Source: Mesotaenium endlicherianum
Taxonomy: Eukaryota
Direction of reading: 5' to 3'
Assembly (NCBI GenBank): GCA_009602735.1
Contig: WELA01001569.1
Location: 1-64,000, forward strand
DNA length: 64,000 nucleotides
In this document: positions 3,950 through 15,755 of the stretch, in pieces
How the letters are laid out: each line of letters begins with the position of its first letter
Numbering within the stretch: the stretch's first letter is position 1
The notes under the pieces: generated by a model
The model's input: the letters and a program-made list of their open reading frames with translations, nothing else
Told to the model about the DNA's origin: nothing
Databases searched by the model: none
Position numbers and translations under genes: made by a program

Positions 3950-6900
3950 ATGGCCAACTTACGCCTATTATACTTGTTAGTCACGATTCTTGCTCTTGCA
4001 CCTGCTCCGCACGTTTGCGCTGATGGCGAACTACCTCTAGTCACCCTAGGCGCCATATTACCATATGCTGATAGCGAGGACTCGGCTATACCTGTTCAAC
4101 TTGCAAATGAATGGTAAGAGTTCATTTCGTCAAAGCCTAGCACACCGCAGATTTGGCAGTATGCTTATTTAGAAGCATGGATACACTAGCTATTAGGAAC
4201 ACTGACTCGCAAAACAGCTTTCTAGTGGACTCTCATAGAAGCTGCATGTTGAGGTTGAGTCTTTTCGTCATGGTGGTGTTTCTTTGGTCTGCGTCAAATA
4301 CTGCTCTGTATATTTGATAGTATTCTCTGGTGAGGCGGGCTTAATTACATATGGGATATGTCCGCTGTGCACTGTGGCATACTTGTGCATAGAGGCTGTG
4401 CTTGATGTGAACGTCTGGATCCTGTGTCATAGTTGTCTGATAATGTGTGCATGCAGGATCACAGCCTTAAGGATAGCCATCGAGATGCTCAATGAAAAGT
4501 ATGCAACACGCTTCCATGTTCGCCCAGAGGTTGTAAATTCTGGTTGCGATTATGACGAAGCTAAAGTTCATGCCCAAGTAAGTCTTCAATTCTGAATAGT
4601 ATGACTGATCAATATGCCGACAACGTTGTAAGCAAAAGCTTAGTAGTGTGGACCTGGTTCCTGTTTCTCTTGAAAGGCGATAACCGCAGTGAGGTCAGCC
4701 TGGTTGGTAGACCAACTGTGGGTGCTATAAAGGGGAAGAGATTTTCGTTTCTCAGAGAAACTTGGCAAGGGAAAGTTTGATCATAAACTGACGGCAGATC
4801 TTGACAAGTTGAAGGGCTTGCTTGTGGTACTAGACTCATGGCGCTTTAGACAAATGACGCTCTCTTTGCAACAGCCTTCTGTCGAGTCTCTTTTGTGTCA
4901 AGCCTGACCTATGACGGGGGTGGTAATAACCACAGCTTTTCGATGAGTACGGTGTAGTTTAGAAAAGCTGTGAAAAAGGAATCTCTATAAGAGCCTGGGT
5001 CCTGCTCATGTGTTGCCCCTTAATTTGTCCCTTCCATCTAATAATGCAGGCAGTCCTAAGTTTCAGGAGAGGAAACTAGATATCGTCAATCAGCTCCAAG
5101 CCTGGTCCAAATCTCTTGCTCACAATCCTCTATGTTCTTCAATTGTACGACATATGCATTTAGTTGCCGACACCTCCGTAAGTGAAGCTTCAGAAACATA
5201 ATTACTCATTTGGGCTCAGGCTAGTTGCTTAGCTCAGAGTCCTGATGTCTGCGCGGGGGGCCTACACATGTGCAGACTCTAGTGGACAGGGGTGTCGCTG
5301 GGGTGGTGGGCCCCGCGTGCTCCGTTGCAGCCCAAGGAGCTGCTGAGGTATTGGGGGCAGCTGGTATCCCCATGATCTCATTTGCTGCTACGGCTGATGA
5401 GCTGACGAACAAAGAGAAATACCCCACCTTCTTCCGCACTGTGTGAGTGCACTTCCCAATTGTAGTGCATTCGGACTCATGTGCGATGAATCCCGTAAAT
5501 CTCAAGTTCGGGTCTTGATATGTGGCCAGTCATATGGTCGTTTGAAGCATCATGTGTGACATGGGAGCAAGTGCTTCTGCTCTTCATATTATGTCGTCTG
5601 CGTCGTCTTGCAGTACTGACAAGGTCTTTCAATACTGTTAAAAGCAGGAATTGGTGTATAGCATGAATTTTTCTTGTTGATTACATGTTGTGTGACTGTC
5701 ATTGAAGCTCTGTAGGATGTGAACTTGGATGAGGTGGCACAGGTATGGAGACAGACAGCAAGGAGCTGCCATAACTGACGTGGTATGCATGACTCTCCTT
5801 CTTGACAGCCTTTCTCACCAGCATAACCTTAAATCTGAGAGCAAACACGCAACTCCTAAGAGTCTCTAGTCCCGCGGCAGAAACCCACCATTCCCCATTT
5901 CGGTTTGCACCGTGCCCTTGAAACCGGGTTGCTCTCAGACAAATTATTTCACGTCTCCTCGTCAACATCCATGTTCTTTCTCCCTGTAAGCTGTGGCTGG
6001 GCCCTGCTTCATCCAGCATCATGCCACGCGTGGCTTATTAAGTTGAATCCGGATTGACTTACATTAGCAACATGACCTAGTAGGGTTCCACTGCAGCTTG
6101 TTGTTCCAAATCATTTCCTTCTCTGGGATTGGACGGAGGTGCATCTTGGAAACTTTGTTCTTGGAAGGAGCTAGTACATCCGAGCAGTCTGACTTAGACC
6201 AGAGCTTATGGCTGGCTGTCCGCTTTGGCCTCACCAATGGGCGGGAGGGGCGAGAGAGAAAGACTAAAGTAGCTGGTTGGTCAATGTCAGGTTAATCTGT
6301 AAGGGTGCGGGTAGAGAGCCTATCTGCAGGAGGGTTAAATTGAGGCGTGAGGTTGCCACCTGCATATGTATGCGCATAGTAGTTCTGTTGAATCTTGTCA
6401 TGTGAGCCATGTGGCGGGTGTATTAACCAAGCCACATGACGGGTACATGGACCACCTCCGGGGGGAGGGTTGTTGACACACACAGATCAAGTTCTTCAAG
6501 TTCAAGAGGGTGTACATGTTTTACTCCATGGATGTCTATGGAGTGGCTCTCAGCTTCGACATCACTGTGAGTCCTCACCCTCCAACTCCAACTCCAACTC
6601 CCAGATCCAATTCCCAACGCCAGCTCCACCAGGCTGTAGCTCCACCGGGCTTTAGTTCCACCGGGGTTGTAGTTCCACCAGGCTGTAGCTCCATGGGGTT
6701 GTAACTCCACCCAGTTGTAGGTCCACCAGGCTGTAGTTCCACTGGTGCGTAGCTTCTCTGGACTCTACGGGCCCCAGTGATGCATTAGTCATCATGATGT
6801 CGTAGGGTCCAACAAGGAGGAGGACACTGGGAGTTCGGGCATGGCGGGCACCTCGCGGTCAACCCTTGTCTGCCCTGGTCAACTTCTGACTGACCGGTCA

Positions 6901-15755: not shown

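Follow-up and report, generated by a model that had tools for sequence, protein, structure and literature searches.

A Venus-flytrap (VFT) ectodomain held by one transmembrane (TM) helix is an architecture known from the animal receptor NPR-C and, in a GPI-anchored form, from the Entamoeba protein EhVFT. In plants, extracellular amino-acid sensing is credited almost wholly to the ligand-binding domain (LBD) of the glutamate-receptor-like channels (GLRs). The role of the VFT-type amino-terminal domain (ATD) of these channels is open (PMC11479355), and amino-acid binding by GLR ATDs has not been demonstrated.

Here we describe a gene of the alga Mesotaenium endlicherianum, located in a 64,000-nucleotide stretch of contig WELA01001569.1 (the window). 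Its product has, in order, a signal peptide, a VFT domain (PF01094), a disordered stalk, one TM helix and a 17-residue tail. The family to which it belongs is a second candidate sensor beside the GLR LBD, and one that would date from the move onto land.

Gene structure and transcript support

Twelve exons on the plus strand, from 3950 to 15755 and each with AG/GT borders, splice in phase to a reading frame of 1680 nt (559 aa and a TAG) that has no internal stop. The 5' leader (3646..3949) is unspliced, starts where the X1 transcript contig begins (3646) and holds four short upstream ORFs with ATGs at 3756, 3784, 3815 and 3834. The coding part of exon 1 (3950..4113; aa 1-54) provides the signal peptide (about aa 1-24) and the first VFT strand, and exon 2 (4457..4577; aa 55-95) provides helix 1 with the invariant W55 and C85. 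The core of lobe 1 lies in exon 3 (5276..5442; aa 96-150), which includes C110, S111, T134 and R149 and matches PF01094 on its own at E 2.4e-13. D154 and Q157 follow in exon 4 (5743..5782; aa 151-164), whose 40 nt equal those of its counterpart in a metagenomic locus (L004), and Y182 and G183 in exon 5 (6486..6566; aa 165-191). Exon 6 (7534..7728; aa 192-256) belongs to lobe 2; exon 7 (8517..8586; aa 257-279) carries the family signature P-W-W-Y-x-G-x-D269-G; exon 9 (10983..11174; aa 299-362) contributes R339 and Y341; and exon 10 (12331..12512; aa 363-423) forms the C-terminal part of the VFT. The domain ends in exon 11 (14184..14417; aa 424-501), which continues into the disordered stalk rich in Pro, Thr, Ser and Ala. 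Finally, the coding part of exon 12 (15579..15755; aa 502-559) supplies a Gly linker, the single TM helix (about 15630-15701), the tail and the stop codon. The 3' UTR (15756..16352) is contiguous with exon 12, with contigs ending at 16294 (X1) and 16352 (X5).

The RNA evidence consists of raw-read runs from three studies (X8, X11 and X14) and the contig run X1. Of the 11 junctions, ten are found as GT..AG joints in the X1 contig and in all three raw runs, where each joint has 9-74 reads per run. The eleventh (12512>14184) is missing from the joint table, its reads being cut at a skipped repeat (12507-12550), and is seen instead as loose ends with the end of exon 10 before 14182 (7, 17, 4 and 35 reads in X8, X14, X12 and X15). 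The X1 contig (2523 nt) has exactly 501 nt between exons 6 and 11, which is the sum of exons 7-10. Neither the RNA reads nor this contig hold an exon from the N-gap at 12782-13369, and the N-gaps at 9530-9652 and 10871 both fall inside intron 8, which reads span directly with no exon there. Because the 501 nt are accounted for exactly and reads cross intron 8, the gaps hide no exon. At the 3' end, contigs continue from 15578 without a further splice as far as 16294 or 16352, none of the RNA joints departs from exon 12, and depth is zero at 16463-16700. The unspliced contigs past the stop, together with this fall in depth to zero, mean that the stop and the 17-residue tail are real. First mates are overwhelmingly minus-strand in four of six raw runs (X8, X14, X9 and X15), as expected for plus-strand RNA.

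A first-pass annotation had proposed these twelve phase-compatible exons from the letters of the DNA. They are borne out, with all 11 junctions supported across the three studies and both splicing and stop codon confirmed. The outcomes that it had named as fatal to the model (transcripts splicing past 15755, N-gap exons that add an effector domain, or no expression) were not what the RNA revealed: no joint extends beyond exon 12, the gaps are free of exons, and spliced reads come from three studies. A secreted isoform made by retention of intron 11 was also considered; there is only low intronic depth with no joints, and we do not claim it. The neighbouring genes (TBCC, RUNKEL/ULK4-like and Ty3/Gypsy elements) suggest no functional link.

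Exon 3 leads to a 100% match to the 540-aa public model ME000508S08050 (P0001), whose jgi/Mesen1 label we take to mean Mesotaenium endlicherianum. The sole difference between this model and the spliced one is aa 280-299, where the public model skips exon 8 (9423..9479; aa 280-298). This exon is real: spliced reads join it at both ends, it is conserved in homologues, and L004 has a matching exon. The RNA-backed exon 8 thus corrects the public gene model.

Architecture, family and origin

The public 540-aa model matches PF01094 (ANF_receptor) at E 6.7e-34 and 117.9 bits against a cut-off of 25.4. All 23 aligned members match too, and PF01094 and PF13458 are the only Pfam families found. Channel, 7TM, kinase and cyclase families are absent from the 23 aligned members in Pfam. 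More specifically, the LBD (SBP_bac_3) and Lig_chan occur in 0 of 23 members, with a transcript that ends after one TM; a 7TM domain (7tm_3) was not found in the protein or the 23 members by hydropathy, Pfam or AlphaFold; and there is no cytosolic kinase or cyclase domain, the 17-residue tail being followed by the stop and 3' UTR. Hydropathy and AlphaFold agree on a single TM. The AlphaFold models of P0001 (pTM 0.72) and of a complete homologue, P0009 (pTM 0.74), have a confident VFT, a stalk with pLDDT <50 and one TM helix. The stalk region (aa 447-518) is 36% Pro, Ser and Thr and looks glycosylated, and the protein has seven N-x-S/T sites. Thus, the layout read from the DNA by the first-pass annotation (signal peptide, complete VFT, Pro/Thr/Ser stalk, single TM and a tail of about 17 residues, with no channel, kinase, cyclase or 7TM part) holds in Pfam, hydropathy, AlphaFold and the transcript's 3' end, and so does its likeness to NPR-C in having a VFT, a single TM and a short non-catalytic tail.

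Structural comparison by VIA-align gives LivK a Z of 35.6 (rmsd 2.5 over 329 aligned residues), an mGlu chain 34.7 and the AtGLR3.4 ATD 33.0. As a group, the structural matches (mGlu, T1R, the AtGLR3.4 ATD and bacterial amino-acid-binding proteins) differ from one another by no more than about 3 Z units. Foldseek matches P0009 to mGlu ectodomains at E about 1e-23, which agrees with the predicted VFT fold, and the best PDB profile match is the AtGLR3.4 ATD (7LZH), over the full domain, at E 2e-27. In the ESM Atlas, the three best feature matches are NPR3 clusters (0.92-0.93). The same clusters are returned for an unrelated triple-VFT protein (P0039), so this match reflects architecture.

A full-length search returned 27 proteins. 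The named members come from Closterium species, Marchantia (1g13780), Riccia, Calypogeia, Ceratodon, Selaginella and a gene model with an SM identifier, presumably Spirogloea. A profile search of the named proteins gave 11 proteins and no new lineage, and seed plants are absent from the named matches of the fragment, full-length and named-protein profile searches. When 1.84 billion representatives were searched with a profile, the best 150 of 15,477 matches included full-length members at 370-591 bits per domain (partly circular for the 23 seeds), with the non-seed members P0038, P0040, P0044 and P0046 at 370-473 bits; the highest-scoring of them outside the family, a single-TM protein with three VFTs, reached 175 bits. 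The family forms one clade, with a land-plant subclade, at SH-aLRT 100 and 99 in two trees; from 81 domains, the trees dropped 10 (SH-aLRT 100), 40 (SH-aLRT 99) and 50 (the third tree, used for the AU test) to remove partial or redundant domains. The family is monophyletic and keeps one architecture across Zygnematophyceae, liverworts, a moss and Selaginella; its conservation predates land plants. Mean column identity in its alignment is 34%, and the C85/C110 pair is invariant.

Metagenomes add five confirmed loci among 79 pattern matches, three of which are full ORFs that lack introns and encode the same architecture. In the stretch covered by L004, seven of nine introns sit at the same place and phase as in Mesotaenium, with introns 2 and 9 absent. 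The L004 coding sequence is identical to that of L002, whose protein resembles the land-plant members (by sequence, outside the trees). Some paralogues (P0020-P0022 and P0033) end before the TM and are apparently secreted, and the anchor is therefore not essential to every member. Relatives were absent from prokaryotic genome contigs in one pattern search and were not found in viral contigs, and a plasmid search gave only two weak ABC binding-protein matches (the best at 30% over 27% of the length).

No description of the family was found in the full-text literature, with subscription journals and bioRxiv supplements outside our reach. Mp1g13780 has no match in that literature, neither gene ids nor domain match in the supplements of PMC12185132, and the database entries bear generic labels (hypothetical protein, receptor ligand binding region, mGluR-like protein E). 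The family is apparently undescribed for plants. The suspicion of a possibly undescribed green-lineage protein is borne out to this extent: no earlier characterisation turned up in the literature covered, the architecture is present among streptophyte algae in Zygnematophyceae, and its range widens to bryophytes and a lycophyte.

Published domain counts offer an independent look at this range. We used sheets 4h and 4l of supplement file 5 of PMC11096116, where genes can be overlooked owing to Pfam thresholds or draft assemblies; searched by term, the main text of that paper has no mention of ANF, GLR or glutamate. The tabulated ANF_receptor genes (those with SBP_bac_3 in brackets) number 1 (0) in Mesotaenium, 2/1/1/1 (0) in four Zygnema genomes, 6 (3) in Spirogloea, 34 (4) in Penium, 2 (1) in Marchantia, 5 (2) in Physcomitrium and 20 (20) in Arabidopsis (PMC11096116). 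There are none in Chlamydomonas, Volvox, Chlorokybus or Klebsormidium, one in Chara (with TIG) and seven in Mesostigma, six with a kinase and five with a cyclase (PMC11096116). Lig_chan genes number 0 in Mesotaenium and in the four Zygnema genomes. Chlamydomonas has 5 and Klebsormidium 14, in every case without ANF_receptor, and of the 16 genomes tabulated, those with ATD-bearing GLRs all belong to Zygnematophyceae or land plants (PMC11096116). By our reckoning, the surplus of ANF genes without a channel fits the VFT-TM family, its range and its absence from Arabidopsis. On these counts Marchantia apparently has one non-GLR copy, Mp1g13780 (two ANF_receptor genes, one with a channel). Since zero Lig_chan genes and one ANF_receptor gene are listed for Mesotaenium, a GLR partner is unlikely there.

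None of the three trees unites the family with GLR ATDs. An AU test (LG+G4, 31 rows) rejects neither a grouping with GLRs (p 0.28) nor one with tandem-VFT proteins (p 0.41), in a comparison where GLRs are represented by only four ATDs from two proteins and no Mesostigma VFT was identified among the matches. A profile of the same four ATDs scores the family at a median of 53 bits (maximum 85) and other VFTs at a median of 80 (maximum 150). NPR-C does not come up in the 60 best rows by PDB sequence, in the 50 best by VIA or in the top Foldseek rows, and the trees are without NPR sequences. Hence, the phylogeny against GLR ATDs proposed by the first-pass annotation establishes the family as one clade, which may be sister to GLR ATDs or to tandem-VFT proteins.

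Candidate ligand pocket, stalk and tail

An eight-residue amino-acid recognition motif was reportedly put forward by Acher and Bertrand in 2005. In the form quoted for amino-acid-binding VFTs in PMC12965686 and PMC2680970, seven of its elements are present in our protein at exact spacing (S111, T134, R149, D154, Q157, Y182 and G183), and the eighth, the aligned acidic D269, is one residue beyond (spacing 85 vs 74-84 allowed). The strict core is found in 15 of 23 rows and the relaxed core in 21. Set against the family's mean column identity of 34%, T134, R149, D154 and Q157 in alignment A2 are present in all 22 covering rows, Y182 and D269 in 24 of 24, and S111 in 20 of 22 with T in the other two; G183 is Ser in land-plant members. 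Based on equal-length stretches, a GsD alignment to mGlu7 and an assumed construct start, S111, T134, D154, Y182 and D269 map onto S165, T188, D208, Y236 and D318 of mGlu1, which are its five main residues (PMC2680970).

W55 is invariant in the family, and several other VFTs, including the 7TM-bearing P0145 and P0052, have Arg there. The Y341 position is aromatic in 24 of 24 rows. Both residues presumably line the part of the pocket that receives the ligand side chain, where glutamate meets Arg78 and Lys409 in mGlu, and this weakly suggests a neutral rather than an acidic ligand. The same pocket residues are present in most other VFTs compared, so their conservation may be partly structural. 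Moreover, EhVFT keeps the motif and showed no binding of Glu, GABA or Ca by ITC (PMC12965686), and the motif alone is thus no proof of binding. Taken as a whole, the conserved residues make it likely that the VFT domain binds an amino acid, and of the two ligand classes put forward by the first-pass annotation, amino acids or peptides, the pocket fits the former better.

The stalk is barely conserved and variable in both sequence and length. The tail starts with a basic cluster and ends in FVRML (15738..15752), an instance of a conserved motif, F-x-R-[LIMV] in the last 12 residues, that algae and land plants share: of 37 TM-bearing rows, 26 have it and 11 lack it, the rows not being independent (many are Closterium near-orthologues). 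No more than 25 residues follow the best hydrophobic window in 27 of the 37, and P0037, P0055, P0080 and L001 have longer Ser/Arg-rich tails instead. This motif is a feature that the first-pass annotation did not mention. It resembles, with Phe for Tyr, the YXX-hydrophobic adaptor signals described in PMC6627992, and a role in ER export or other docking is equally possible.

Functional readings and known systems

Given the observed gene, architecture, fold and family, and the conservation of pocket and tail motif, our preferred reading is a receptor-like protein that binds amino acids, depends on a partner and owes its sorting to the tail, to which we assign a probability of roughly 0.45. The protein would enter the secretory pathway with its VFT facing the wall or a lumen. 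There, the lobes would close on a free L-amino acid held by S111, T134, D154, Y182 and D269. With no catalytic or channel part, the protein would act through a partner membrane protein, and since a floppy stalk of 70 residues is unlikely to carry a direct mechanical signal to the TM helix, a kinase, channel or transporter would sense from the side whether the lobes are open or closed, much as in plant receptor-like proteins. The tail motif is predicted to control surface delivery or retrieval. A bolder version, possible though we lean against it, is that the family founds a GLR-independent class of extracellular amino-acid receptors, maybe as the free-standing sister of the module that turned into the GLR ATD. 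This sisterhood comes into view because GLRs of Chlamydomonas and Klebsormidium are ATD-less and ATD-bearing ones occur only in the clade that has the family. The family would give plant receptor-like proteins a new ectodomain class and could account for the origin of the GLR ATD. It lends itself to direct tests: Marchantia apparently has a single non-GLR copy, the one copy in Mesotaenium is accompanied by no listed GLR, and the ectodomain is soluble with a well-predicted fold.

Other readings share much of this evidence. An unlikely one is an aid to capture and uptake, i.e. a tethered high-affinity binding protein for nutrient-poor water that passes its ligand to a transporter or internalises it, with no signalling. 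Bacterial amino-acid and keto-acid solute-binding proteins are the top structural matches (tied with mGlu), the cysteine pair is invariant, and the long tether and the TM-less paralogues would suit capture. However, plant amino-acid permeases are not known to require binding proteins, and close prokaryotic relatives are missing from the genome contigs and plasmids searched. We consider it quite unlikely that the tail instead sorts an endomembrane protein, a luminal amino-acid sensor or cargo receptor, to endosomes, vacuole or Golgi. Lysosomal and TGN proteins likewise have a short tail that ends aromatic-x-x-hydrophobic (PMC6627992), and the glycosylated-looking stalk agrees, but the motif fits surface recycling equally well and the TM-less paralogues would be secreted.

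The resemblance to NPR-C raises the prospect of a true analogue that clears a peptide or protein ligand or inhibits a full-length VFT receptor as a heterodimer. Besides the shared architecture and the Atlas matches, there is precedent in NPR-C itself, which clears its ligand and forms inactive heterodimers (PMC10334801), and the VFT-kinase-cyclase receptors tabulated for Mesostigma are a possible source of a truncation (PMC11096116). This is nonetheless improbable: the small-ligand pocket is intact, none of the 60 best PDB sequence matches is NPR-C, the Atlas matches extend to the unrelated P0039, and the one ANF_receptor gene listed in Mesotaenium leaves no full-length VFT to inhibit. Lower still we rate a truncated GLR serving as an auxiliary or dominant-negative channel subunit, which we hold to be highly improbable. 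The PDB profile match to AtGLR3.4, the AU result and the restriction of tabulated ATD-bearing GLRs to Zygnematophyceae and land plants are in its favour, yet Mesotaenium and the four Zygnema genomes keep ANF_receptor with zero Lig_chan genes in those tables, no tree joins the family to GLR ATDs, and the GLR-ATD profile scores it below other VFTs. That the gene is an artefact or pseudogene, a fragment of something longer, is refuted by the spliced reads and contiguous 3' UTR. Five Closterium genome models do fuse the domain to others (P0002, P0012, P0023, P0024 and P0027), but the partners differ from model to model (CP12, PPR, Sec23/24, OTU), P0019, a close relative of P0024, ends normally, and many homologues, including transcript-derived ones, have the same C-terminal end; we infer that the five are probably mis-merged.

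With NPR-C (NPR3) the algal protein shares a signal peptide, one VFT, one TM and a short tail with no catalytic domain. It differs in its intact amino-acid pocket, its long disordered stalk, a tail of 17 residues with another motif (37 in NPR-C; PMC10334801), a genome in which no full-length VFT receptor is listed, and NPR-C's place outside the best sequence matches. The AtGLR3.4 ATD has the same PF01094 fold and is the closest PDB profile, whereas our protein lacks the LBD, pore and M1-M4 of plant GLRs, forms a separate clade in the trees and occurs in genomes reported to lack GLRs. Class C GPCR ectodomains (mGlu, CaSR, T1R and GABA-B) share fold and alpha-amino-acid motif, but have the 7TM and cysteine-rich domains that the algal protein lacks, and P0145 and P0052 have Arg in place of W55. 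LivJ and LivK, top structural matches with the same pocket motif, are only about 20% identical, and the algal gene is intron-rich, encodes a TM and cytosolic tail and has no ABC transporter context. EhVFT is likewise an effector-less eukaryotic VFT that keeps the amino-acid motif and is at the cell surface (PMC12965686), though it is GPI-anchored, whereas the algal protein is held by a true TM followed by a conserved basic tail. Judged by hydropathy, its C-terminus is not a GPI signal, as the TM is followed by 17 residues that start basic and end in the conserved motif. LRR receptor-like proteins such as CLV2 and Cf-9 consist of an ectodomain, a TM and a short tail, and signal through partners. 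The algal protein has this same layout of ectodomain, one TM and short tail with no kinase, and its ectodomain is a VFT in place of the LRR, LysM or lectin domains of plant receptor-like proteins.

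Exon 8, the 5′ leader and low-depth RNA in introns

RNA reads of the VFT receptor gene include a 57-nt exon (exon 8, window:9423-9479) that is absent from the public gene model, ME000508S08050, so that a conserved part of the VFT domain is deleted in that model. The transcribed 5′ leader carries four short upstream ORFs of 2-24 codons (window:3756-3889), which could possibly provide translational control. Sense-strand RNA is present at low depth within introns 8 (window:10405-10871) and 11 (window:14487-15474), and the joints listed from RNA reads include none in either interval. 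If retained, intron 11 would yield a TM-less product with a stop at 14579.

Neighbouring features

Facing the 3′ end of the gene is a convergent, spliced transcript of the opposite strand (window:16943-17333), with a loose read end at 17333. Further along lie an intronless tubulin-folding cofactor C (TBCC) ORF (window:19248-20324) and a RUNKEL/ULK4-like kinase gene with HEAT/ARM repeats (window:26147-32983), broken by an N-gap at 29520-30248. A cluster of Ty3/Gypsy chromodomain retrotransposons occupies both strands of window:37365-63340 and holds two near-identical minus-strand copies (gag ORFs 54093-55382 and 60271-61560), the second with pol in two separate ORFs.

Related architectures and other green genomes

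Four family paralogues (P0020, P0021, P0022 and P0033), three of them from named Closterium, are TM-less and share a common C-terminal end; they are apparently secreted. Top-scoring non-members among the best 150 of 15,477 family profile matches include P0039, P0056, P0057, P0061 and P0047, which have 2-5 VFT domains in tandem and, in some cases, a single TM and no effector. P0039 is similar to an ESM Atlas cluster whose few taxon-assigned members are mostly molluscs.

As tabulated in sheets 4g, 4h and 4n of PMC11096116 supplement file 5, Mesostigma has 5-7 genes for VFT-kinase-guanylate-cyclase receptors, no ATD is detected in the GLR-type genes of Klebsormidium and Chlamydomonas, and Penium has 34 ANF_receptor (VFT domain) genes, only four of which also carry SBP_bac_3 (the GLR LBD).
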